Of a DNA stretch of 32,000 bases, positions 7,574 to 29,841 are shown in pieces. Made by a program: the position numbers and the translations under genes. How positions within the stretch are numbered: the first letter of the stretch is position 1; the number at the start of each line of letters is the position of its first letter. This stretch comes from Planctopirus limnophila DSM 3776 (lineage in GTDB: Bacteria; Planctomycetota; Planctomycetia; Planctomycetales; Planctomycetaceae): NCBI RefSeq assembly GCF_000092105.1, contig NC_014148.1:4620001-4652000 (forward strand), written 5' to 3'. The notes beneath the pieces were generated by a model. The model did not search any database, was not told the origin of the DNA, and worked only from the letters and a program-made list of their open reading frames with translations.

Positions 7574-7615
7574 AAAAAAAACAACCCCCAACGACTCTCA
7601 CAAGTCGTCAGGGGT
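7574..7615 (-). terminator. Intrinsic terminator on the minus strand (hairpin plus T8)
   Basis: The minus strand reads ACCCCTGACGACT-TGTGAG-AGTCGTTGGGGG-TTGTTTTTTTT. The ACGACT/AGTCGT and CCCC/GGGG stems are followed by a run of 8 T. No convincing minus-strand ORF lies upstream of it. Confidence 0.5.
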
Positions 7616-8242: not shown

Positions 8243-9820
8243 ATGCAAAAAAAAGTGGGCGATCAACGAATCGAAATCATAAATGATGACCGTGTGTACA
8301 CTTCTTCAGAGTTGATTGGTAAGCTCAACGCTGAAGGTTTTAGCACTCCAAATGCTCGCAAAATCCTCAGTCGCGAGTCACAAAAAAAGAGCCTTTGGCG
8401 TTCAGAAACGCTCAAATTACCGAGAGATGAACGACTATTTTCTCGATTGGGATTGGTTGGAACGCCATCCTTCTTCGCACAAATCGGAGAAAAACTAAGG
8501 TCAACACAACGGCATGGAATAGCGAGAAGTGTCGCAGCTCTTGGTACGCATAAGCTGCTTCATCGCATGGATCTGCTACGTCTCCTCGCTGTGACATCAT
8601 CAACGGATGCCGCCCTGTCAGGAAGTCGGCAAAGACTCTCATTTGAGGAGGAGTGCCGCTCGCTCGAAGAACTTGGAGCAAAAATCATTCAGCGTGGAAC
8701 AGCTTTAGAGTCAGTTGTGGCACCACAGGCTGTGCAAACCGGTGAAGACCTAGATTCTCTTGCAGTGATTGCCTTAAGCCGAATTCGAGTTGAAACACTT
8801 CTCGCAAAGATTTTAACTGAACGGTTTCGAAAGCAGAATCTCATATCATGGAACTGCATCGATATCGCGGACTTTGACAAGCCATACGTTGTTTTCAATG
8901 GGCAAGTTTTCACAGCATATGGGTTTTCCTATCTTGGACCTCTAAGGCGGTGGAAAGATGGAAACCGAACTCCTACTTCATGTCCAGTCGTTATAGACTG
9001 TTACCACGATATGTGCTCCCTACCTCAGGTTGAATCTTTGCTTCAAAGAATTCAACGAGCAGCCTATCGAGGCCGCAAACAGCAGCCCATCTTGGGCGTA
9101 ATTGCCGCACGCGACTTCGAAACGGAGGCGTGGAGTAAAGCTCGTCAAGAATCGTTAATGACTGTTAGCTTTCGCCAATTGTTCGGCGATGAAGCATTGA
9201 ATGTAATGATTCAGATTGAACAACTGCTTTGCGGAATATGCCAGTCCGATCCAAAAAACTCTCAAGATCAATATAATAAAGTGGCTACACTGATAGAAGA
9301 CTTAAAGGTGAATCCAATTGTAGCAGATTTACGAGCAATTGGTCTTGAATTAATATCTGCTTTGATTCTGCAATCAAATGGATTCACTTCACTAGAGCTC
9401 GGTCGAGTCGTTCCATGGGGTAGTACATCTCGCGATGTAGATGTTTTTGGGATTCGTGCGGATAATGAGTTGAGAATTGTGGAATGTAAAGCCTATCACC
9501 ATAAAAAATCTCTTCTTGACTCCGATGTAAAAAAGTTTTTTACGGAAACCGTACCAGCATTGAAGAAATGGCTGAAAGACAATTCTCGTCATTTTGAAAA
9601 ATGTATTGCTGAAATTTGGACGACAGGGCCTAAAGGCAAAAACGCAGAAAACACCATGAAGGAAATTAGAGTGCCTGCTGGTGACAATTGGACAATACGA
9701 AGAATGAGTGATATGCACGCAGAGATACCAAAAAATATACGAAGACGCAGTGTGGCGCTCTTAAAGGCCATTTCATTTCCAGAAACAGACCTGAACGACT
9801 TATGCAACGAAGAATGCTGA
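8243..9820 (+). CDS. Large hypothetical protein with a C-terminal PD-(D/E)xK (Mrr/restriction-endonuclease-like) nuclease motif; candidate stand-alone defence or restriction-like gene
   Basis: The 525-aa ORF sits in an AT-rich block. The C-terminal region reads ELISALILQSNGFTSLELGRVVPWGSTSRDVDVFGIRADNELRIVECKAY (nt 9434-9490), which contains D...E-x-K in the usual helix-strand context. I did not recognise the N-terminal ~390 aa. Confidence 0.8.
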   Translation: MQKKVGDQRIEIINDDRVYTSSELIGKLNAEGFSTPNARKILSRESQKKSLWRSETLKLPRDERLFSRLGLVGTPSFFAQIGEKLRSTQRHGIARSVAALGTHKLLHRMDLLRLLAVTSSTDAALSGSRQRLSFEEECRSLEELGAKIIQRGTALESVVAPQAVQTGEDLDSLAVIALSRIRVETLLAKILTERFRKQNLISWNCIDIADFDKPYVVFNGQVFTAYGFSYLGPLRRWKDGNRTPTSCPVVIDCYHDMCSLPQVESLLQRIQRAAYRGRKQQPILGVIAARDFETEAWSKARQESLMTVSFRQLFGDEALNVMIQIEQLLCGICQSDPKNSQDQYNKVATLIEDLKVNPIVADLRAIGLELISALILQSNGFTSLELGRVVPWGSTSRDVDVFGIRADNELRIVECKAYHHKKSLLDSDVKKFFTETVPALKKWLKDNSRHFEKCIAEIWTTGPKGKNAENTMKEIRVPAGDNWTIRRMSDMHAEIPKNIRRRSVALLKAISFPETDLNDLCNEEC

Positions 9821-10203: not shown

Positions 10204-10950
10204 TTGTCTTCGAGCCTTGCAGAAATACCTGTCGATTTCGAGCCGCTGGACATCCTGTGTGTGGCACCGCATCCGGATGATGCGGAGATCAGTGTGGGAG
10301 GTTCGCTGCTCAAATGGCATCGGATGGGGCAGCGTGTGGGTGTTCTCGATCTGACTTCGGGTGAACCCACCCCCTTCGGAACACCTGAAATTCGACGCTC
10401 AGAAACCCAGGTGGCGACGAAACTTCTGGAGCTGGATTTTCGTTTGAACCTCGGTTTACCGAATCGCGCGCTCGAAGCCACACTGGATCATCGTCGGGCT
10501 GTGGCGGAGGTGTTTCGATTAACCAGTCCCAAGGTCATTCTGGCACCGTGGCCTGAGGATGCCCATCCCGATCATGTGGCAGCGACACAGATGATCGAGG
10601 CGGCACGGTTCTGGTCGAAACTGACGAAAACAACCATGGCGGGTGAGCCTTATCACCCTCCCCGAATCTTCTACTACTGGAGCATTCACCTCAAAATTCA
10701 GCCAGAGCCGGCATTTGTCGTCGATATCAGCGAGACGATCGATGAGAAGATGCGGGCCGTCGAGGCTTATGCCAGCCAGTTCATCACAGGTCGCACACTC
10801 ACCTTTCCGACGGCTCTGGATGATATTCGTGACCGGGCCCGCTACTGGGGCTGGGCAATCGGAAAAGCTTATGGCGAGCCAATCGGGAGTCGCGAGGCTT
10901 TGTGCGTGCATGATCTGGGAGCTGTCACCAGCCTGAAGCTGGGAACATAG
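10204..10950 (+). CDS. PIG-L/LmbE family N-acetylglucosaminyl deacetylase (BshB1-like)
   Basis: Contains ILCVAPHPDDAEISVGGSLLKW and GVLDLTSGE plus a downstream HPDH motif, all typical of the PIG-L family. A TTG start has AGGAAG ~10 nt upstream. Confidence 0.85.
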   Translation: MSSSLAEIPVDFEPLDILCVAPHPDDAEISVGGSLLKWHRMGQRVGVLDLTSGEPTPFGTPEIRRSETQVATKLLELDFRLNLGLPNRALEATLDHRRAVAEVFRLTSPKVILAPWPEDAHPDHVAATQMIEAARFWSKLTKTTMAGEPYHPPRIFYYWSIHLKIQPEPAFVVDISETIDEKMRAVEAYASQFITGRTLTFPTALDDIRDRARYWGWAIGKAYGEPIGSREALCVHDLGAVTSLKLGT

Positions 10951-11419: not shown

Positions 11420-13129
11420 TTATGGTTTACGCTGACTTTTGCTCAATTGTTTTGCGGCCCAGGGGGCGAGTTTCTCCCGGAAGATTTTGGAATTGTGCCG
11501 GGTATCAACGGGGAACGCCGGGTGTTCGAGAAAGTGTTCAATCGCTGCCGTGACCCGGCAACTGATGGCCAGCGAGCGAAGTTCTTCTTCGAGCTGAGCA
11601 AACGGTGTGCGGTCGCCCGGATTCCTTTCAACACACAGGACAGGGATGATTCGCTGGTCAATGAGAGCACCGACCAGAGCTGTTCTGGCGACTGCGGGAT
11701 GCCCATTGAAGACCGCTTCGCACTGATCGGCAAAGAGGGTTTGTGCAGGGACACCAGCTTCGGCCGGCAATTCAACCCGCTGTGATTTCCGGCCGCAAAA
11801 CCATAAGTGGCCCAGCTCGTCAAAGTAGCCGGCATCTCCCATGCGATGCCAGAGTTCCCCCGTGTGTGGATCGATGATTTTTGCCAACGCTGTCTGTTCG
11901 GGTCGGGCATCGTAAGACTTGGTGACGACTGGCCCGCAGACGGCAATTTCGCCAATCACACCTGGTAAGCGGATCAGATCGTTCGACCACTCGGGGATCG
12001 GCTCATCACTCAGGCGAATGACGCGGGCCTCCATGCCGGTCACCACTTGACCGACGCAGATCCCCGCTCCAGCGGCAGTTTTCTGCTGGGTTTCACCTAA
12101 AATCTGCTGGCTCGAAACAACAGCCACAGGGAGCGATTCCGTCGCACCATAAGGTGTGTAGATGGGTGTCCCCGGCGATAAAAGGGGCTGGAACAGTTCC
12201 AGAATTTTCGGGTTCACTGGTGCGCCGGCAGAAACCACACGCCGAAGTGTGGGGAAGGTCTTTCCCGCTTGTTGTGAAGCGATGGCCAGCCTGCGGATCA
12301 GAGCGGGAGAACCGAACAGATTTGTGACTTGAAAGAGTTCGATGGGTTGCCAGATTTCTTGAGGATCGACCTTCGCAGGACGGGTGAAATCCATCCGCGG
12401 AATAATCGCGGACATATTGAGGGCCGGGGCAAAGAGTGCGAACAAAGGAAAAGTGCAAAGATCAATTTCGCCCGGAGAGATCTTCAGAGCCTCTTTCAAC
12501 AGTTCCACCTGGCTCAAGAAGATCTCGTGAGTGTAAACGGCTCCTTTGGGAATTCCTGTGCTGCCACTGGTGAACAGGATGGCGGCTGTTTCATCCCGGG
12601 GGAGATCGACCATGGGAACCTGTGAGCTTTTCTGGCCCAGTCGTCGCAGTTCGTCATAAGTCCGCCCGCTCCACCAAAGCTTACGGCCGACGGTAATCAA
12701 CTGGCGCAGCGAGCCTTTCGCCCAGCCCAGCAAAGAGCGCGCGATGTGAGCCTTGGTGATGCCAATAAAGACTTCGGGACGGGCTTCGGTCAGGCATTGT
12801 GCCAGATTTTTGAGCCCCATGCCGGGATCGATGAGGACGGGGACGGCCCCCAGCCGGAACAGGGCAAAAGTCAGTACGAAGAATTCCGGTGAAGGGGGCA
12901 CCATGAGCGCAATGCGTGTCCCCCGGCGAATGCCGATCGCATTCAGCCCGGAGGCCAGTTCAACAGATAATTCATGGAGCTGCTGAAAAGTGAGCGTTTG
13001 ATAATTCTCCACCCGCAGTGGTGTTCGACCGGATGGCGGAGCGTAAATGGCGACCTGATCTGGCCTGTTAGCAGCAGCAGTTTCCAAAGTTCGAGCAATG
13101 TTACTGGCTGTCATACGCTGCAGACTCAT
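11420..13129 (-). CDS. AMP-dependent synthetase/ligase (fatty-acyl-CoA ligase family)
   Basis: The AMP-binding motif ILFTSGSTGIPKGAVYTH is present with an adenylate-forming enzyme layout (YGATES, GEIAVCGP..., WHRMGDAGYFDELGHLWFCGRK). The ATG at 13129 lies one codon inside the TTG of the track ORF. Confidence 0.9.
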   Translation of the reverse strand: MSLQRMTASNIARTLETAAANRPDQVAIYAPPSGRTPLRVENYQTLTFQQLHELSVELASGLNAIGIRRGTRIALMVPPSPEFFVLTFALFRLGAVPVLIDPGMGLKNLAQCLTEARPEVFIGITKAHIARSLLGWAKGSLRQLITVGRKLWWSGRTYDELRRLGQKSSQVPMVDLPRDETAAILFTSGSTGIPKGAVYTHEIFLSQVELLKEALKISPGEIDLCTFPLFALFAPALNMSAIIPRMDFTRPAKVDPQEIWQPIELFQVTNLFGSPALIRRLAIASQQAGKTFPTLRRVVSAGAPVNPKILELFQPLLSPGTPIYTPYGATESLPVAVVSSQQILGETQQKTAAGAGICVGQVVTGMEARVIRLSDEPIPEWSNDLIRLPGVIGEIAVCGPVVTKSYDARPEQTALAKIIDPHTGELWHRMGDAGYFDELGHLWFCGRKSQRVELPAEAGVPAQTLFADQCEAVFNGHPAVARTALVGALIDQRIIPVLCVERNPGDRTPFAQLEEELRSLAISCRVTAAIEHFLEHPAFPVDTRHNSKIFREKLAPWAAKQLSKSQRKP

Positions 13130-21338: not shown

Positions 21339-21501
21339 GGGTGGCAGGGGTCAAACGTCCTCGTTTGCCCCCGGGTCATCTGACATTGGCACTTCATGGC
21401 GACGTTCATGGAGAGTCATGAAGAACATTGCGGATGCAATGTGTCCTGTGGTCCTCGAGTGACCTGGGGGCGAATGAAGACATCCGACCCCAGCCACCCG
21501 G
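21339..21501 (-). repeat. MITE-like element copy E (reverse orientation, 163 bp)
   Basis: 21339-21380 GGGTGGCAGGGGTCAAACGTCCTCGTTTGCCCCCGGGTCATC is the reverse complement of the right arm. 21459-21501 GTGACCTGGGGGCGAATGAAGACATCCGACCCCAGCCACCCGG is the reverse complement of the left arm. Confidence 0.85.
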
Positions 21502-21523
21502 CCTTTTTTGTGGGGAACATTTC

Positions 21524-22336
21524 ATGAATCAATTTGGTTGGCGCGATGATCTGGAAGAGCGTCTGCTGTTGTCGGCATCTTCTCAAGCTCCGCTGACGAG
21601 GTCATTCTCTGTCAGCGATGCTCCACAAGAAATCGATCCCCGCCCATGGCATCGCATTGAAATGCAGGGATCTTTGGGAAGCTGCCAGGGGCATGCCCTG
21701 TCGAGCGTGGGAGAAATGGCCTATCACCTCGCCAGTGGGCGCGTGACGCAGTTCTCACCTCTGTTTGCCTATTACGCCACTCAGCAGATCGATGGGCTTT
21801 TAGGACGTGATCAGGGGAGCACCATTCAAGGGGGTGTCCAATGTGCCCGGCAATATGGCTTCTGCCCGCTGGAGGTGTTCCCGAACCCCGTCCCCTTGCG
21901 CTACACCGGTGTGATTCCTCAAGAAGCCTGGCCCGCAGCGGCACCATTTCGCATCCGGTCGCACACTGTGTGCACCTCGTATGACGATGTCTGGTCATTT
22001 CTCGCAGCCGGGCAAGGAGGTGTGGTGGCTGGCCTGGGCTGGAACAGCAGCCTCACGCCACGTCAGGGGCGTATTGAAAGTTATCGCCCGGGCGGTGGCG
22101 GGCATGCCGTCGCATTTCTGGGATACAGCCGGCGGCGCGATGCCCAGCAACGACCTTATCTCTGGCTGGCCAACAGCTGGTCAGAGGAGTGGGGAGATGA
22201 CGGCTGGGCAGAGGTTGCTCCGCAGGCGGTGGAATCGATGCTGGCTGATCGCCGGACTGTCATGGTCGGTCTCTCGGATCTCAGTCTGCCGACACCAAGA
22301 CCCATTCCCTGGCGAGAAAAATCGATCTTTGAGTGA
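21524..22336 (+). CDS. Papain-family (C1) cysteine peptidase with no obvious signal peptide
   Basis: Contains QGSLGSCQGHAL (catalytic Cys context), GGGHAVAFLGY (catalytic His) and LANSWSEEWGDDGW (Asn-Ser-Trp). The ATG at 21524 is preferred because the longer track ORF begins inside the MITE copy. Confidence 0.85.
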   Translation: MNQFGWRDDLEERLLLSASSQAPLTRSFSVSDAPQEIDPRPWHRIEMQGSLGSCQGHALSSVGEMAYHLASGRVTQFSPLFAYYATQQIDGLLGRDQGSTIQGGVQCARQYGFCPLEVFPNPVPLRYTGVIPQEAWPAAAPFRIRSHTVCTSYDDVWSFLAAGQGGVVAGLGWNSSLTPRQGRIESYRPGGGGHAVAFLGYSRRRDAQQRPYLWLANSWSEEWGDDGWAEVAPQAVESMLADRRTVMVGLSDLSLPTPRPIPWREKSIFE

Positions 22337-22412
22337 GCCCCGCACCTGCTGAGCGGCTCGCGGATTTTATTGACATCCAGTTTCCACACACCCTTTGTTT
22401 CAGGGGAGAATC

Positions 22413-23315
22413 ATGTTCCGGAGCATCACCTTCTCGCTGATCTATCCTGCCGGGCTAATCATGTGGCTGGCCACTGGCCCGCAGGCAGGGGCCCAACCTC
22501 ATGTAATGGCTGAAGAAGCTCTTTCGCAGTCAACGAAAGCGGCATGGCCATCACTCTTTGCAGAGGCAGCAAGCCCCGCGAGTCCTGTGAATACAGCTCA
22601 GAATTCTCGTGCGTTGCAGTGGCTGGTGTTTTATGGCCCGGGGTGTGTCCCCTGCATGCGCGCTATTCACGATTTTCAGCCCTGGTTGAAGGCCAGTGGC
22701 TGGGAGGTGAGCGAAGTTCCCCAGGCTCATATCCGCTTGATCGACGCCAATCGCGAACAGTCGCTGGCACGACAGTTTCAGATCGAAGCTTGGCCCACCT
22801 TTGTGCTTATGCATGAGGGGAAAGTCCTCGAGCGGCACACATCGTATCCGGGGCGGCAATTCCTGGCAGACCGCTATCTGGCAGCCGCTGCTCGAGTTCG
22901 TGACCAGCGAAGCTTCACCAGCCATGAGCCAGTCAGTGCGATCTCGATGGGCACTTTGTCCAATACGTCTCGGGAAGTGGCCCTGCTGCTGGAATCGACC
23001 CGGCCTCTGCTCGAAGCGGGACTGATGTTCGAAGGCCGTCTCCTGCCAGCCAGCCAGAAGGCTTCAGGCAGCTTGCCAGCCAGTACCACCATTTCACTCA
23101 CCGAATCAGCAGCCATCCGGCTCTACTGGCCACTCGTGTTTCGCTTATCGAGACAACAAAACTCGCTCCATCTCGATTTCGAGAAGCCATATCCCCAGTT
23201 CCGGATGTCGAACATCTTTCCTGTCGAACAATCGATTGAAGGGCTCACAGCCACCACGCAATCTCTCACTATCGAGTTGCCCCGCATGATTGACCTCAAG
23301 TGGCAGCTCGATTAA
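22413..23315 (+). CDS. Secreted thioredoxin-fold protein (CVPC) with an uncharacterised C-terminal domain
   Basis: The signal-like N-terminus is MFRSITFSLIYPAGLIMWLATGPQAGA. WLVFYGPGCVPC provides the CxxC motif and EAWPTFVLMHEGKV provides a cis-Pro loop. GGGAGA lies upstream of the ATG at 22413. Confidence 0.75.
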   Translation: MFRSITFSLIYPAGLIMWLATGPQAGAQPHVMAEEALSQSTKAAWPSLFAEAASPASPVNTAQNSRALQWLVFYGPGCVPCMRAIHDFQPWLKASGWEVSEVPQAHIRLIDANREQSLARQFQIEAWPTFVLMHEGKVLERHTSYPGRQFLADRYLAAAARVRDQRSFTSHEPVSAISMGTLSNTSREVALLLESTRPLLEAGLMFEGRLLPASQKASGSLPASTTISLTESAAIRLYWPLVFRLSRQQNSLHLDFEKPYPQFRMSNIFPVEQSIEGLTATTQSLTIELPRMIDLKWQLD

Positions 23316-23402: not shown

Positions 23403-24293
23403 ATGCTGCTCAATATCTGCTACCACATCGCCCCTAAGGCACCCACCGTTCAGGCCTCGATGGTTTGCGATCACTTCGGCCTGACACTTGATGGCCAGCA
23501 GCAGGTGATTGCCCGCGATCTCGAACTCCCGGTCACTTCCGGAAACCTCATTGCCTTCGTCGGCCCCTCGGGCTCTGGCAAATCGTCACTCATGCGGGCC
23601 GTCGCTGCAGAGCTGAAGTCATCGGGCCAAGGAGATGTTCTGTGGCTTGATCATCTGCCGCAGGTTGCGTCACTCGTGGCCGACGCCCTGGCACTTCCAC
23701 CACTGGATGCCTTTCGACTTCTGGCCCAGTGCGGTCTGGCTGAGCCACAACTTCTTTTGCGAACACCTGATGAACTGAGCGACGGCCAGAGATTTCGCTT
23801 TCGCCTCGCACAAAGTGTGGCCGAGGCGCTTCGTCGCCAAAGTCAGCATTCATCACAGGGCACCTGGATCGCGGCCGATGAGTTCACTTCGCCACTCGAT
23901 CGCACGCTAGCCAAAGTGATGGCCCGCAACTGGCATTCCCTGTTGCGCCAACATCGCCTCGGTGGCCTCGTGGCCACCACACACACCGATATTCTCGACG
24001 ACCTCGAGCCCGACCTCATCGTCACCTGCAGTCACGACGCGCCGCCTCAGCTTTCCGGCCTGGCCGCCTCGCCGACATTCTCGTCCGCAACATCGTCCGC
24101 ACAGCGGACCCTACGGGAGGCCGACGCCCCCACGCCCGCTGTAAAAAAAAAGAAATCAGCTTTTTCCACGAACTGGCCCTCACCACCGGAACGAAACGCG
24201 ACTGGGCGTATTTTGCTCGGTGGCATTACCGCTCGCACTCCGTCGGCATTGTCCGCTTCGTCACCATCCTCTGGCATCTCCACGAACCCATAG
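23403..24293 (+). CDS. ABC-type ATPase (no transmembrane domain); the zero-frame product ends in a low-quality tail after an A9 tract
   Basis: Contains Walker A GPSGSGKSS, signature LSDGQRFR, Walker B WIAADEFTSPLD and H-loop ATTHTD. After ...PTPAVKKKK the frame-0 sequence (SAFSTNWPSPPERNATGRILLGG...) no longer looks protein-like. The start is ATG at 23403 or GTG at 23340. Confidence 0.85.
   Translation: MLLNICYHIAPKAPTVQASMVCDHFGLTLDGQQQVIARDLELPVTSGNLIAFVGPSGSGKSSLMRAVAAELKSSGQGDVLWLDHLPQVASLVADALALPPLDAFRLLAQCGLAEPQLLLRTPDELSDGQRFRFRLAQSVAEALRRQSQHSSQGTWIAADEFTSPLDRTLAKVMARNWHSLLRQHRLGGLVATTHTDILDDLEPDLIVTCSHDAPPQLSGLAASPTFSSATSSAQRTLREADAPTPAVKKKKSAFSTNWPSPPERNATGRILLGGITARTPSALSASSPSSGISTNP
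24143..24152 (+). promoter_or_regulatory. A9 tract containing a dnaX-type A_AAA_AAG -1 slippery heptamer, in phase with the ATPase frame
   Basis: The frame-0 codons are GTA AAA AAA AAG AAA. The heptamer A AAA AAG occupies 24146-24152. A -1 shift here enters the GNAT-like frame exactly at EISFFHELALTTG... Confidence 0.5.
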
Positions 24294-24814
24294 GCATCTG
24301 TGTCTTCACCAGTGCCCCACTCTCGTTGCGTTTGCGCAACCAGTACTTTGGTCTTTCCGGCCGCTGGACAAGAACCGGCCTCCAGGCCATCGATCGACAG
24401 TTCTGCCGATTGGCCCGCGTGGTGATTCATCCCACGTATCGAGGAGCCGGGCTGGCGGCTCCTTTTGTTCGCGCCAGTTGCCAGCATGTTCCCTGGCCGT
24501 GGATCGAATCGCTCGCCGAGATGGGGCAGTTCCACCCCTTCTTCGAGAAAGCCGGGTTCCTCAATCTCGGGGAATGTCAGTCCGCAACCCATTCCCCAAA
24601 GGCACCTGCCGCAGACCATCGTGAGCAGCACTCCCAAATCTACGGCACACGTTCACTTTCGGGCCGCAAGCGATTGATCACTCATGAAACGTTCCGCAAA
24701 AGCCAACATGCTCACCCCGTCTACTTCCTCTTCGATAATCGAAACTCACCCGCCTACCTTGCCAGTTGCCAGAGAAGAATCGCCAACAGTCCCCCATCCC
24801 ATGCTCTGGAATGA
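24152..24814 (+). CDS. GNAT-like acetyltransferase domain ORF lacking its own start codon (reachable from the ATPase frame by a -1 shift or by A10)
   Basis: Hand translation of the -1 frame gives EISFFHELALTTGTKRDWAYFARWHYRSHSVGIVRFVTILWHLHEPIGICVFTSAPLSLRLRNQYFGL...LARVVIHPTYRGAGLAAPFVR...FFEKAGF, which includes a GNAT motif-A-like R-x-x-G-x-G/A. This frame is open from 23882 but has no ATG, GTG or TTG before the TTG at 24326. Confidence 0.65.
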   Translation, partial: EISFFHELALTTGTKRDWAYFARWHYRSHSVGIVRFVTILWHLHEPIGICVFTSAPLSLRLRNQYFGLSGRWTRTGLQAIDRQFCRLARVVIHPTYRGAGLAAPFVRASCQHVPWPWIESLAEMGQFHPFFEKAGFLNLGECQSATHSPKAPAADHREQHSQIYGTRSLSGRKRLITHETFRKSQHAHPVYFLFDNRNSPAYLASCQRRIANSPPSHALE

Positions 24815-25244
24815 ATCACTCGAAACCACACCACAGCTTCTGAAACCCGCTCTGCTCACCAGCGATCAACAGGCGGAGTTTCTCGAACTTCTCACCAAAG
24901 GAGCCAGTCCCTTCGGTGCCTGTGAGAAGCTGGAATGTTCGCAACTGCAACTGGCTCTCACGCTCGCGCAAGATGCCGAATTTTCCGAGAAGCTCAAGGC
25001 GATCAAGGAGATTCAAGGCCAGAACGTGGTGGCCATGCTCTATCAGGCGGCCCTCAAGGGAAATGTCACAGCTCAGCAATTCTGGCTGCGCCATCAGCCA
25101 CCAGCCGACTGGCGACTGGCTGCCAGCCCACTGGAAGGACAAGACCTCAGCGATGCCGATCTCTTTGACCGCTGCCGAGAGGCAGGACTTGATTTCCCGC
25201 CTGAACTCACTGCGCGCCTGGCAACTCCTGATCTCGAGGCATAA
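24801..25244 (+). CDS. Putative terminase small subunit / HTH DNA-binding protein
   Basis: 147 aa from the ATG at 24801, overlapping the end of the GNAT frame by 14 nt. It contains LTSDQQAEFLELLTKGAS...ACEKL (HTH-like) and AALKGNVTAQQFWLRH, a motif I associate with phage small terminases. It lies directly upstream of terL. Confidence 0.6.
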   Translation: MLWNESLETTPQLLKPALLTSDQQAEFLELLTKGASPFGACEKLECSQLQLALTLAQDAEFSEKLKAIKEIQGQNVVAMLYQAALKGNVTAQQFWLRHQPPADWRLAASPLEGQDLSDADLFDRCREAGLDFPPELTARLATPDLEA

Positions 25245-26751
25245 TCCTCACAGCTTCCGGCATGTGGTCCGTCTTTCTGCCGCCGATCGAACGCGGCAGG
25301 CCACACTCGAATCGTGGCAACGGGCCGATTTCGCAGCCCTCGACCCCGCCTGGCGCAAATTGGCTTTCGGTTCTCGTCCTTCGTTATCACAGGCCGACGC
25401 GACCACTTCGAACGCTCCCCACGTTCTTCGAAGGGCCTATCTCGAGCGACCGCGCGGCCACTCGAAAACCACCGATATCGCTCTCTCCTGCGCCTGGATA
25501 CTCGCCTTCGCGCAGGAACCCGTCACTGGCATTGCAGCGGCTGCTGATCGTGAACAGGCCCAGTTGCTCCTGCAGGCCATTGCGAGGCTCGTGCGTCTCA
25601 ATCCTCACCTGCTGGGCCATCTGCAGGTGCAGCAGGAACGGGTGATCCACACGCACACACGCAGCCGGCTCGATGTCATTTCTTCCGATGTCGCCAGCTC
25701 CTGGGGCCTGCTCCCCGATTTCGTCATCTGTGACGAACTCTGCCACTGGACAAAGCCTGATCTGTGGCATTCGCTCGTTTCTGCATCGGCGAAAAAGCCG
25801 CACACCCTGCTCGCTGTGATGAGTAATGCTGGTGTGGGCCGTACCTGGCAATGGCAGGTTCGCGAGGCTGCCCGCACTTCTCCCGAGTGGTACTTCTCAT
25901 CGCTCCATGGCCCTCAGGCGAGCTGGATTACCCCAGAAACACTGGCCGAGCAGCAGCGTTTGCTCCCCGCGACCGTCTTTGCCCGCTTGTGGCTCAATCA
26001 GTGGCAACAGGCGGAAGGCGACTTCGTCACTCTCGACGAAGCCCGGGCCTGTATCGATCCCTCACTCGCGAGGAAAGAGCATGGTTCACCAGGCATCCAT
26101 TATGTGGCGGCCATCGATTATGCCGAGAAGCACGACTGGACAGTCGCTGTCATTCTGCATGCCGAGGGAGATCGCCTGATTGTCGATCGCATGGATGTCG
26201 CTATTCCACAGCCCGGGCGGCCCACACCTGTCGCGTGGGTCGATAACTGGCTCACCTGGGCAGCGGGTGCCTTTGATGATATTGAGTTCGTGCTCGATGA
26301 ATATCAGTTATTGTCCATCATCCAGCATCGCTCGGCAGAACTCGCACTCGAACGCTTTTCGTTCGCTGGTGGAGCCGGGAATCACGCTCTGGCGATGTTA
26401 TTGCGGCAACTGATTATCGAACGCCGGGTGCTCTGGTACCCCGGTTGCGGCTCACCGCAATTCGATCAACTCGATTTTTCCCACGGGCCCACTCCTGCAG
26501 AAGCGCTGATCAATCCCGAGACGACGACGCAGCCGGGAGATGAGAACGATCTGGCTCAGGAACTGGCGACACTTTTGCTGCGACAGTCGCCTTCGGGCCG
26601 ATTGCGTTTTGACCATCGAAACGAAGCCGGCTTCCACGACGACCGCGCCTTCGCTCTCGCCGCTGCCTGTTTAAAACTGACAAAAACACCCATCTCTCCC
26701 TCCTACTTCGACCTCACCCCACCCACAACCGACGGCACATTCGCCTGGTAA
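25153..26751 (+). CDS. Phage terminase large subunit (Terminase_1/COG4626-like)
   Basis: Contains ERPRGHSKTTD (Walker A-like), DFVICDELCHW (Walker B), MSNAG, and the C-terminal RNase-H-like nuclease motifs AAIDYAEKHDWT and FHDDRAFALAAA. The start is uncertain: ATG at 25153 overlaps terS by 92 nt, and GTG at 25264 is the alternative. Confidence 0.9.
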   Translation: MPISLTAAERQDLISRLNSLRAWQLLISRHNPHSFRHVVRLSAADRTRQATLESWQRADFAALDPAWRKLAFGSRPSLSQADATTSNAPHVLRRAYLERPRGHSKTTDIALSCAWILAFAQEPVTGIAAAADREQAQLLLQAIARLVRLNPHLLGHLQVQQERVIHTHTRSRLDVISSDVASSWGLLPDFVICDELCHWTKPDLWHSLVSASAKKPHTLLAVMSNAGVGRTWQWQVREAARTSPEWYFSSLHGPQASWITPETLAEQQRLLPATVFARLWLNQWQQAEGDFVTLDEARACIDPSLARKEHGSPGIHYVAAIDYAEKHDWTVAVILHAEGDRLIVDRMDVAIPQPGRPTPVAWVDNWLTWAAGAFDDIEFVLDEYQLLSIIQHRSAELALERFSFAGGAGNHALAMLLRQLIIERRVLWYPGCGSPQFDQLDFSHGPTPAEALINPETTTQPGDENDLAQELATLLLRQSPSGRLRFDHRNEAGFHDDRAFALAAACLKLTKTPISPSYFDLTPPTTDGTFAW

Positions 26752-27089: not shown

Positions 27090-27776
27090 ATGAGCCATCT
27101 CCGAGGTTGGTTTGGCGAAATCTGCACCCGGCTGGGCCTGTGGCTCAGGCTCCCTTCGCGAACCTACCGCCAGTTCCACAACGTCGTCGTCCCCACCTCC
27201 AACGGCACGACACAGATCGATCACCTGATCGTTTCAACTTACGGCCTCTTCGTCATTGAAACCAAGACCATGAATGGCTGGATCTATGGCAACGAGCAAG
27301 ACAGCCAGTGGACGCAGAAGTTCTATAAAAAATCGTTCCGCTTCCAGAACCCGCTCAAGCAGAACTATCGGCATCTCTGCTGCCTCGAAGAGCACCTGGG
27401 CCTGCCCCGAACCTGCATGCACTCGATTATCTTCTTCATCGGCGACGCGGAACTGAAGACCCCCATGCCCAGCAACGTCCTCACTCACGGCCTGTCGAGC
27501 TATATCCGCTGGCATCGCGAGCCATTATTATCTGAAGACGAAGTGGAGCGGATCATCGCCGCCATCCAGGAACTGAAACGCGATCGCACTCTCAACCACG
27601 CCACCCACATGGCCTCACTCGCAGACCGCCACTCCTCAACCACCCGCTGCCCCAAATGCGGCAACGATCTCATCGAGCGGCAATCCCAACGCGGCCCGAA
27701 TGCCGGCAACACCTTCCTCGGCTGCAAATCCTACCCCCGCTGCCGCTTCACCAGACAACTCTCCCAAGAGCCATAA
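27090..27776 (+). CDS. NERD-domain nuclease fused to a topoisomerase-type C4 zinc ribbon
   Basis: Contains QIDHLIVSTYGLFVIETKTMNGWIYGNEQDSQWTQ (NERD signature) and the C-terminal CPKCGNDLIERQSQRGPNAGNTFLGCKSYPRCR (zf-C4_Topoisom pattern). Confidence 0.9.
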   Translation: MSHLRGWFGEICTRLGLWLRLPSRTYRQFHNVVVPTSNGTTQIDHLIVSTYGLFVIETKTMNGWIYGNEQDSQWTQKFYKKSFRFQNPLKQNYRHLCCLEEHLGLPRTCMHSIIFFIGDAELKTPMPSNVLTHGLSSYIRWHREPLLSEDEVERIIAAIQELKRDRTLNHATHMASLADRHSSTTRCPKCGNDLIERQSQRGPNAGNTFLGCKSYPRCRFTRQLSQEP

Positions 27777-28044: not shown

Positions 28045-28251
28045 CTACTCATCGTGAGTAGCTTGATTGCGTGCACAAGGGTGACAAACAACCTCATGTC
28101 TTGGTTTGTCGAGAATGATATCTTCCGGTGCCAATGGTGCCACAGAAGATGGTTGCAAACTTTGCAAAAGGATGTGTCTTTTCCAAATTGGCCATTCTCT
28201 GACCACTGCCGCAGCACGTTCTAGCTTCTCAAGGAATTCGGCATCAGTCAC
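28045..28251 (-). CDS. Small hypothetical protein (68-71 aa) translationally coupled to the deaminase gene
   Basis: The GTG at 28251 has GGGAG 8 nt upstream and overlaps the deaminase stop (GTGACTGA); an alternative GTG is at 28260. The sequence reads (MEKV)TDAEFLEKLERAAAVVREWPIWKRHILLQS... GC content is similarly reduced to that of the deaminase gene. Confidence 0.45.
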   Translation of the reverse strand: MTDAEFLEKLERAAAVVREWPIWKRHILLQSLQPSSVAPLAPEDIILDKPRHEVVCHPCARNQATHDE

Positions 28252-29755
28252 TTTTTCCACTCCCAGTTGCGGCGTTAATTGACTGAAGGAAAAGTGTAGC
28301 CGCCTCCGTTTCGGAATCCAAATAAGAACGCGGCGCCATCTGTATTCTAGAACGAGAATCTTGAATAGACCAGTTTATCTTCTGTCCACTTTCATCATTT
28401 TTGCGCACTAGTGGGTAGCTCGACCCCAGTTGCATGGAGAATAAGTCAAAAAAACGTCGAGGGCCGATTCCGACAAACGGCTCGAATCTCACTCGTCCGT
28501 TCACTTGCTCACTTTTTGTTCCGGGAGGTGCAATTGAGTCGTCGTGAAACTCCAAAGCCTTGCTTTTTGGATATGGTTCAACGTAAACGACTCTCTCAAT
28601 GCCTGCCGCTACAATATGTTTCGCACAATTGTGACAGGGAAACGTAGTGCAGTAAAGTGTTGCTCCAACAGTTGAAACACAATTCCTGGCGCAGCTAAGA
28701 ATTGCTTCCATTTCCGCATGAACAACTCGACCGAATTCAGTCAGATCTCGAATCGGACTACCCTCAAGGCAAGCTGCCACCATCTTAGTATCAACATTAC
28801 ACTTCTGGCCGATTGAATTAGCAATACTGTTAATCATTCTTACCTGTTCAGCTCGATTAGAATCGCCATCCTTCCTCATGTAGTCTCTACCATCTTCCAA
28901 ATCTCGAATACACGGGCCATCATGGCGATCTGGCCAGTACAGACCTCCGCCTGCCTTGGGGCAGTCATTAGCTCCAGTCGAAAGTATCTGCTTATCCTTA
29001 GCGACAACGGCTCCTACCTGCCTCGAAAGATCTGCGGAGCGAAGCGCTGACGAAAACGCCATAAACATTGCATGCTCGTCGAATGTTGGCGTCTGGAAAG
29101 GATTGCCGAACCAGAGATCGACAATACGGTCGATGTCACACGCAAGCTGCGATTGATTAGAAGAGAGATCTATAAAAAAATCGGCCAAATGAAATGTTTT
29201 CCGCAACCTCTGTCCATGCGGATCTTCACTTTCGTCAGCATCACGATCAAGCAGTCGATCAACCTGTTCGGTTGACAACCCCTTACGAGTGAGCTCTTGA
29301 CGCCGATCCTGCTCGCTCTGATGAACACCAATTAGCAGAAAACCGGATGGATAGGTCACCCTTAAAAATTCGACCTCCTCTGGCCGCTTTAGGGAACTGA
29401 TTATAAATGCGGCTTTCTGTTTTGGCTGAATTGTCTCGTTGCTACTCAATCGCCGTGAATATATGTTCGCGACAACACCTTGTGCCAACACTGAGTCACC
29501 GTGCTCCGCCCTTGACTTATTCCCGGCATCCATCATCTTGTTGATTCGGTCGTATTCCGATTTGTACGGCGTATTGTCACCTGACATACGGCTCATCACA
29601 TCGCTAGAAACGCGAATAACTTCAACTGTATAGGAGGCTCTTTCCAGTGACTTTTGTAGATCCCGGATGAATCGATCACTATCTGTCCCTACAGCGTGCA
29701 AAAGTCCAATCATCAACTCAGGATGAAAAGATACAGATGAGTCTACTTTTTCCAT
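28244..29755 (-). CDS. Kinase-like N-terminal domain fused to a dCMP/CMP-type zinc deaminase (AvcD / anti-phage dCTP-deaminase type)
   Basis: The C-terminal half has HAEMEAI and PCHNCAKHIVAAGIERVVYVEPYPKS (the CDA zinc motifs H-A-E and P-C-x-x-C). The N-terminus has PELMIGLLHAVGTDSDRF...YTVEVIRVS and HLADFFID, resembling the nucleotide-kinase-like module of defence deaminases. The ATG at 29755 is preferred over the GTG at 29764. Confidence 0.85.
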   Translation of the reverse strand: MEKVDSSVSFHPELMIGLLHAVGTDSDRFIRDLQKSLERASYTVEVIRVSSDVMSRMSGDNTPYKSEYDRINKMMDAGNKSRAEHGDSVLAQGVVANIYSRRLSSNETIQPKQKAAFIISSLKRPEEVEFLRVTYPSGFLLIGVHQSEQDRRQELTRKGLSTEQVDRLLDRDADESEDPHGQRLRKTFHLADFFIDLSSNQSQLACDIDRIVDLWFGNPFQTPTFDEHAMFMAFSSALRSADLSRQVGAVVAKDKQILSTGANDCPKAGGGLYWPDRHDGPCIRDLEDGRDYMRKDGDSNRAEQVRMINSIANSIGQKCNVDTKMVAACLEGSPIRDLTEFGRVVHAEMEAILSCARNCVSTVGATLYCTTFPCHNCAKHIVAAGIERVVYVEPYPKSKALEFHDDSIAPPGTKSEQVNGRVRFEPFVGIGPRRFFDLFSMQLGSSYPLVRKNDESGQKINWSIQDSRSRIQMAPRSYLDSETEAATLFLQSINAATGSGKSD

Positions 29756-29841
29756 GATCGCCACTTACTAAGATTACCAATTCGACTGAGCTGCTATTGT
29801 GTGCGATTTGAAGGGGTAAGAGCAAGTTGTAAATGTCCAAC

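Follow-up and report, generated by a model that had tools for sequence, protein, structure and literature searches.

A conserved A9 run between the ATPase and GNAT frames of a phage-derived Planctomycete gene is a candidate programmed recoding site

Within a 32,000-nucleotide stretch of Planctopirus limnophila DSM 3776 (contig NC_014148.1, positions 4,620,001 to 4,652,000 of the forward strand; referred to as the window, whose numbering is used throughout) lies a gene for an ABC-type ATPase whose reading frame meets, at a run of nine adenines (A9), a second frame that has no start codon of its own nearby and that encodes a GNAT-fold domain. On balance, and with confidence only a little above even, we read the A9 run, in this ABC-ATPase–GNAT gene of phage origin, as a programmed recoding site that is under selection and would most likely operate through slippage of RNA polymerase. 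The anatomy of the junction, the conservation of the run together with its -1 configuration and the purifying selection acting on the downstream frame are established directly. The current gene call is a 296-residue ATPase that leaves the GNAT half without annotation, and the same annotation error will touch dozens of Planctomycete genomes and metagenome-assembled genomes.

A script applied to the window sequence places the A9 run at 24143-24151 of the forward strand and finds it to be the longest homopolymer in the whole 32 kb, all others being of eight bases or fewer. The ATPase frame reads GTA AAA AAA AAG AAA (V-K-K-K-K) across the run and then continues into a 46-codon tail that ends at a TAG stop, 24291-24293. 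Open between 23882 and 24814, where a TGA stop (24812-24814) closes it, the -1 frame encodes EISFFHELALTTGTKRDWAYFARWHYRSH... from 24152 onward; it contains no ATG, GTG or TTG before the TTG at 24326, the only earlier candidates being CTG, ATT, ATC and ATA codons. The heptamer A_AAA_AAG occupies 24146-24152 in phase, and a ribosome shifting by -1 at this point would read on through GAA ATC AGC TTT TTC, or E-I-S-F-F. These points, namely the A9 tract between the ATPase frame and a tail ending at 24293, the open -1 frame with its late TTG and the phased heptamer leading into E-I-S-F-F, had all been made in a first-pass annotation of this DNA and are confirmed in the sequence. Either one additional A in the mRNA (A10) or a -1 ribosomal slip joins both frames, giving a fused protein of 470 residues from ATG 23403, or of 491 residues from GTG 23340, with the junction sequence ...PAVKKKEISFFHE. 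In an AlphaFold2 model of the fused protein the predicted local distance difference test score (pLDDT) is below 50 over linker residues 243-266 and exceeds 90 from residue 271 onward, and the A-run codes for the last three residues ahead of the ordered second domain. Positions of all features are collected in Table 1. Two A8 runs are found elsewhere in the window, at 7574-7581 and at 8247-8254, the latter directly 3' of the ATG of a 525-residue open reading frame (ORF; 8243-9820) that lies within a stretch of low GC content (44-45% at 8-10 kb vs 54% overall).

Table 1. Features of the ATPase–GNAT locus and its neighbors, in window coordinates
Feature	Position	Strand	Basis or remark
ABC-type ATPase ORF, frame 0	23403..24293	+	Pfam, NCBIfam, PDB profile, Foldseek; alternative upstream GTG 23340
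Variable, disordered linker, about residues 243-268 of the fused protein	24066..24142	+	AlphaFold2; unalignable among homologues
Possible hairpin ACAGCGG...CCGCUGU ending at the A-run	24101..24142	+	-19.2 kcal/mol, z = -1.5; window-specific, not significant
A9 run, proposed slippage site	24143..24151	+	Sequence; kept in relatives
A_AAA_AAG, as in E. coli dnaX	24146..24152	+	In phase here; not the conserved feature
GNAT-fold acyltransferase-like domain, EISFFHEL...FDNR...	24152..24814	+ (-1 frame)	AlphaFold2, Foldseek, dN/dS, motif
Small-terminase-like gene, directly downstream	24684..25244	+	phrog_309 terminase small subunit, E = 1.6e-7; syntenic in about 35 related loci
Large terminase (TerL) gene	25153..26751	+	Pfam TerL_ATPase; phrog_9, E = 9e-30; syntenic in 36 related loci
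Papain-like peptidase, upstream cassette	21428-22336	+	Common only to close Planctopirus-type relatives
Thioredoxin-like protein, upstream cassette	22395-23315	+	Common only to close Planctopirus-type relatives

The N-terminal half is a complete ABC-type ATPase, with Walker A (GPSGSGKS), signature (LSDGQR), Walker B (IAADE) and H-loop (TTH) motifs and with matches to Pfam ABC_tran and to NCBIfam ABC ATPases. GPSGSGKS, LSDGQR, DEF and TTH form invariant columns of the family alignment, the family profile retrieves ABC nucleotide-binding domains from the PDB with E = 7e-23, and the top Foldseek matches of the fused-protein model (pLDDT 84) are MalK and FtsE. Because the whole-protein Foldseek search returned ABC nucleotide-binding domains only, the GNAT domain was also modelled (pLDDT 86.6) and searched alone, which produced 47 PDB matches at E <= 0.001, almost wholly GNAT-fold enzymes. 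The best of these for the domain (24152-24811) are TmcA (2zpa), phage Mu Mom (8bv8) and NAT10 (9aym), with E values of 4e-5 to 2e-4 and TM scores of about 0.48, ordinary small-molecule GNATs scoring only slightly below them. An acyl-CoA motif, RGAGLA (R-x-x-G-x-A), is invariant or nearly so in the family alignment, and although the Pfam GNAT match is weak in the window protein (E = 0.053) its homologues carry PF13508, PF13673 or PF00583. As modelled, then, the C-terminal half is a GNAT fold, and the GNAT-like domain that had been proposed for the -1 frame at first pass is borne out by structure prediction and by the motif.

The conceptually fused protein, used as a query, retrieved 627 relatives. 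The best 120 of these are almost all single ORFs of 400-490 residues that cover 91% of the fused query, several of them named 'ABC-type ATPase with predicted acetyltransferase domain', and short ATPase-only calls are limited to the closest relatives. To judge from these sequences, the fusion of ATPase and GNAT in one ORF is the normal architecture of the family. We then determined, in the DNA of close relatives, of 80 species-representative genome loci, of 20 metagenome loci and of 80 viral contigs, the reading frames of the two matches, ATPase and GNAT, and the nucleotides that separate them, counting non-redundant loci and leaving tracts shorter than A8 out of the tally of runs. The GNAT match lies in the -1 frame behind an A9 run in 30 loci, behind A10 in 2 and behind A8 in 1; it is in frame behind A10 in 9 loci and behind A9 in 1; and 4 loci have A8 or A9 in the +1 configuration. 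The run is absent from 51 in-frame fusions and from 13 loci in which the two matches are out of frame, several of the latter being genuine split genes with an ATG for the GNAT part. The family thus displays four layouts, which are plain fusion, in-frame A10, out-of-frame A9 and split genes, and of the arrangements that the first-pass annotation had envisaged for orthologues (one fused ORF, two ORFs or the same A-run) all three occur, the last with A9 in the -1 configuration, A9(-1), in 30 loci.

What is kept at these junctions is the length of the run. One more A generates an uninterrupted ATPase–GNAT fusion in 32 of the 33 loci with a -1 configuration, and the restored junction reads KKK-x-(I/V/L)-S-F in every case. 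In the 953 kb of Planctomycete DNA that was fetched, 50 of the 52 A/T runs of at least 9 bases are this junction, a count that takes in two truncated contigs (L171 and L176); one of the other two is a T17 run at 12561-12577 of a metagenome-assembled genome locus (L068). The A9 run is kept in genomes of 54-69% GC, where AAA makes up less than half of the Lys codons, and all nine A's are retained though the linker is unalignable and dS exceeds 1 between lineages. Its codon phase and its flanks vary: among the A9(-1) loci 16 have the run in phase 0, 12 in phase 2 and 2 in phase 1, and the base that follows is G in 23, C in 5 and T in 2 of the 30. In a neighbor-joining tree the A9(-1) layout prevails throughout one large clade of Planctomycetaceae, the A10 and split forms being scattered tips.

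Several further junctions deserve mention. The base ahead of the run is T in 19 of the 30 A9(-1) loci, and in phase-0 loci with such a T the GNAT frame has a TAA stop where the run begins. A viral contig of 80 kb, AT-rich and far removed from the Planctomycete clade (IMG/VR 3300046673_000114, L153), also has, between the two domains, an A9 run with the GNAT part in the -1 frame (about 10590-10636); with one more A the junction reads KKK-ISFYNNL. In contigs of about 100-115 kb from SSU5-, RHEph10- and nickie-like phages (L092-L166) 400-1700 nt intervene between the ATPase match and the GNAT-like match, whose relative frames vary, an arrangement that suggests inserted domains or separate genes.

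The out-of-frame GNAT domain is under purifying selection, as judged by comparison of coding sequences. The ratio of nonsynonymous to synonymous substitution rates (dN/dS) in the GNAT region is 0.02-0.27 between A9 loci, including pairs with dS near or above 1, and is similar to that of the ATPase domain; in close relatives the GNAT frame is intact apart from one TAG codon in Planctopirus hydrillae. These observations bear on the suggestion of a sequencing error or a recent pseudogenization, made at first pass; in the case of an error the true sequence would be A10. Homopolymers are error-prone on some platforms and one close relative does have A10, but A9 is seen in independent assemblies of many projects, SPAdes and MEGAHIT contigs included, and it is exactly one additional A that repairs nearly all of the -1 loci. 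With A9(-1) found in 30 non-redundant lineages, most of them assembled from Illumina data, and with purifying selection acting on the GNAT frame, we take sequencing error and recent pseudogenization to be ruled out and give them next to no credence.

Faithful decoding of the A9 message leads to an ATPase-only protein of about 296-317 residues, including the 46-residue out-of-frame tail, and, if the run is a recoding site, a fraction of expression would lead to the full ATPase–GNAT fusion of about 470 residues, reading ...PAVKKK-EISFFHEL... over the junction. Most likely RNA polymerase would slip on the 9-bp rA:dT hybrid and add one A, a process of programmed transcriptional realignment that would yield an A10 mRNA; the ribosome, by slipping -1 or by sliding along the same A's, would arrive at the same protein and may contribute. 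We infer a switch at the level of RNA, a ratio between the two products and a need for both. Since ABC ATPases function as dimers, a mixed assembly of short and long chains is plausible.

Transcriptional slippage is favored because the invariant feature of the junction is the length of the homopolymer. With the run found in phase 0, 1 or 2 and followed by G, C or T, its conservation exceeds any single heptamer that a ribosomal slip needs, and such a slip would require at most seven of the nine conserved A's. Bacterial RNA polymerase slips efficiently in vivo on runs of 9 A or 9 T, the RNA:DNA hybrid is 9-10 bp long and the dnaX gene of Thermus thermophilus employs a run of this kind (PMC5009743); transcriptional realignment typically takes place on A runs with n > 7 (PMC3711429). 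An A-run of ~9 nt whose length is kept regardless of phase and flanks, a start-less but selected downstream frame and rescue by a single base are the features that fit realignment of the T. thermophilus dnaX type. The proposal in the first-pass annotation that recoding gives both an ATPase-only product and a fusion of ~470 residues is therefore supported, at the level of sequence, by the conservation of A9(-1) and by selection on the GNAT frame. Of the explanations offered there, transcriptional slippage gains from the invariance of the homopolymer length, DNA-level switching keeps some probability because close relatives carry A8 and A10, and the analogy with the dnaX heptamer and sequencing error or pseudogenization do not stand.

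It is important to ask whether the same fusion could be made mainly on the ribosome, by programmed -1 frameshifting (a tandem slip on A_AAA_AAG or A_AAA_AAA, or sliding on AAA codons) with transcription remaining faithful. In the window A_AAA_AAG is correctly phased, every A9(-1) locus has some in-phase A_AAA_AAN heptamer, and the -1 configuration is found in 33 loci vs 4 with the +1 configuration, as -1 frameshifting needs. The dnaX heptamer itself is in phase in only 9 of the 30 A9(-1) loci, however, and to judge from this comparison it is a trait of the subclade to which the window belongs and not of the conserved site. Nor are stimulatory elements evident. The only GGGAGG in the window (24115-24120) lies 25 nt upstream, too distant for a stimulator resembling a Shine-Dalgarno (SD) sequence, which in dnaX-type sites stands about 10-14 nt ahead of the heptamer, and SD-like 4-mers 5-22 nt upstream are not enriched (27% of A9 loci vs 33% of run-less controls). 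Downstream structure in 24153-24232 is nothing unusual (z = -0.33), the mean z of the downstream fold over the 30 loci, -0.09, being the same as in controls; the upstream fold of the relatives has a mean z of 0.08 and shows no trend vs shuffles; and an Rfam scan of 23800-24600 with E up to 10 matched no family, the DnaX element included. Organisms with tRNA-Lys(CUU) shift poorly on AAG (PMC5009743); a search for tRNA-Lys genes turned up no tRNA gene of any kind, either in the window or in the 42 related loci covered. Further, two or three A's beyond the minimal heptamer are retained in all 30 lineages despite the variable linker, and A10 is also retained in the 9 in-frame genes, which need no frameshift. 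We therefore consider it rather unlikely that the ribosome provides the main route, and the headline of the first-pass annotation, a dnaX-type frameshift on A_AAA_AAG, is not upheld, since that heptamer is not what is conserved and its stimulators are absent.

A number of points weigh against programmed transcriptional slippage and must be set beside the evidence above. In the window the transcriptional and ribosomal routes give an identical product, and a ribosomal -1 slip is possible in every A9(-1) locus because any A9 holds an in-phase A_AAA_AAN. Lineages without the run exist, both as the 51 in-frame fusions and as split genes in which the GNAT frame has its own ATG overlapping the ATPase tail (L069 at 2612, L072 at 3658, L075 at 6798, L079 at 6900 and L185 at 374), so that a two-product arrangement is not obligatory for the family. 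Run length also varies at the DNA level among close relatives, with A9 in the window and in L003 and L004, A10 in P. hydrillae and A8 in L002, a Logan assembly; L173 and L177 have A8 and A9, respectively, between identical flanks, and some of these length differences could be assembly errors. The presence of A8 and A10 in close relatives suggests that DNA-level switching also occurs.

These same length differences, and the scatter of A10 forms as tips amid A9 lineages, are what would be expected of a phase-variable switch in which replication slippage toggles the gene within populations between A9 (OFF, ATPase only) and A10 (ON, fusion). Tract lengths fall in an extremely narrow range, however, with 30 A9(-1) loci vs 10 in frame and no A11 or longer among the 47 tracts of at least A8, whereas broad tract lengths typify classical contingency loci, and a poly-A of 9 is a weak mutator relative to known contingency tracts. 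In addition, A9(-1) persists over saturated dS with selection on the GNAT domain as strong as on the ATPase, and the sole A10 isolate has a nonsense codon in its GNAT domain. We judge a DNA-level switch to be an improbable account of the run. The isolate in question, P. hydrillae JC280 (L001 = L016), is the only close relative with an in-frame A10, and in it a TAG replaces a conserved Trp (HVP*PWIES, L001 7093-7095), so that its constitutive fusion is truncated within the GNAT domain; this nonsense codon may be due to chance or may be a sign that a constitutive full-length fusion is disfavored.

A separate GNAT protein could in principle be made by internal initiation just after the run, the A-rich tract then serving as an unstructured landing site for ribosomes. 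A start in the GNAT frame does lie within a few bases of the run in L073, L082 and L178 (ATG) and in L067 and L186 (GTG), and other lineages have the genuine split genes, with an ATG of their own, described above. In the window, however, the first 175 nt downstream of the run are free of ATG, GTG and TTG, and most A9 loci likewise lack a start close by; we reject internal initiation as a general mechanism. There is no conserved start, since the codon ahead of the invariant S-F is ATC, GTC or CTC, and internal initiation leaves unexplained why the run is one base below the in-frame length in 33 of the 37 out-of-frame cases. We regard it as very improbable.

The gene is part of a small module. 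The three genes, for ATPase–GNAT, a small-terminase-like (TerS-like) protein and TerL, keep their synteny in about 35 Planctomycete loci (L008-L086), at roughly 50% identity, the outer flanks being unrelated host genes. If ATG 24684 is its start, the TerS-like ORF shares up to 130 nt with the 3' end of the GNAT frame; its overlap with the TerL ORF is 92 nt. A ParB_N protein is encoded upstream in L070 and L077, and a lambda-type portal follows TerL in L077. In the Gordonia phage BiggityBass the order is a ParB-like nuclease, a 409-residue 'ABC-like' protein (gp2), terminase and portal, and SSU5-, RHEph10- and nickie-type phages also carry homologues. No capsid, portal or tail genes were found near the module in the window; with no capsid or tail genes adjoining it, the module looks as though it may be cryptic or domesticated. 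Downstream of TerL the window encodes a NERD nuclease with a Top1-type zinc ribbon (27090-27776) and, on the opposite strand, a 506-residue protein with a cytidine or MafB19-like deaminase domain (28244-29764), which may be defense or toxin genes beside the module.

As to function, the predicted likeness of the GNAT domain to TmcA/NAT10 and to Mom suggests, only as a lead, ATP-coupled acylation of nucleic acid. One may go further and suppose that the A9 run is a maintained stoichiometry device, in which slippage would set the ratio of ATPase-only protein to fusion and so give an asymmetric ABC dimer with a single GNAT, an ATP-driven nucleic-acid acyltransferase, TmcA- or Mom-like, acting on phage DNA or RNA beside the terminase. 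We put this forward as a speculation of low probability; if true, the recoding site would point to an unrecognized step in the packaging or modification of phage DNA that Planctomycetes have retained within a cryptic or domesticated terminase module.

Literature searches, which included recoding reviews and surveys, turned up neither an account of this family nor any mention of recoding in it; the GeneTack frameshift survey took in only 2 Planctomycetes genomes (PMC3711429). The mechanism proposed is of a known kind; apparently new are the gene family in which it would operate, the evolutionary depth over which the run is kept and the side-by-side occurrence of A9, A10, fused and split layouts. 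The short list of bacterial genes that need homopolymer slippage for their full product would gain an example deeply conserved across many lineages, in a phylum scarcely sampled by previous frameshift surveys, and a single protein family with four layouts for the expression of two domains offers a natural experiment. The findings also draw attention to an uncharacterized ABC-ATPase–GNAT protein encoded, in many phages, beside terminase and ParB-like genes; as modelled, its GNAT domain most resembles enzymes that acylate nucleic-acid bases.

The closest parallels are the dnaX genes of T. thermophilus and of Chlorobi, which have a coding-strand run of 9-10 A at a domain boundary (PMC5009743, PMC3711429), two products with a common N-terminal ATPase but different C-termini, and conservation of the run length, not of a phased heptamer, with no accessory RNA element needed. 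In T. thermophilus, unlike here, an uninterrupted frame encodes the long product and the short one arises by slippage, whereas in the present gene the long product would need the slip, as proposed for the Chlorobi dnaX (A10, two ORFs; PMC3711429). DnaX is a clamp-loader subunit, to which the phage ABC-ATPase–GNAT family is unrelated, and slippage in this family is putative. With the dnaX gene of Escherichia coli the window shares the identical heptamer in the identical phase and a -1 shift, but the E. coli gene has an SD-like element at about 10 nt upstream and a downstream stem-loop, both absent here, its heptamer is not conserved among the relatives of the present gene, and its shift truncates the protein where the shift proposed here extends it. 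Poly-A rescue of interrupted genes, as in tssM of Citrobacter rodentium (PMC4256274) and in the poly(A) tracts of endosymbionts, likewise gives two length variants via polymerase infidelity; those cases are strain-specific or belong to genome decay, whereas the interrupted state prevails here, is long-lived and extends over a large clade. In domain content the gene resembles COG2401-type proteins and the phage 'ABC-like' proteins (BiggityBass gp2; SSU5, RHEph10, nickie), which combine the same two domains beside ParB-like and terminase genes, most members being, however, plain in-frame fusions without an A-run. Finally, the coupling of an ATPase to a GNAT recalls the RNA cytidine acetyltransferases TmcA and NAT10, and phage Mu Mom is a GNAT-fold DNA modifier, but the ATPase here is of the ABC type vs the helicase type in TmcA/NAT10 and there is no relationship at the level of sequence.

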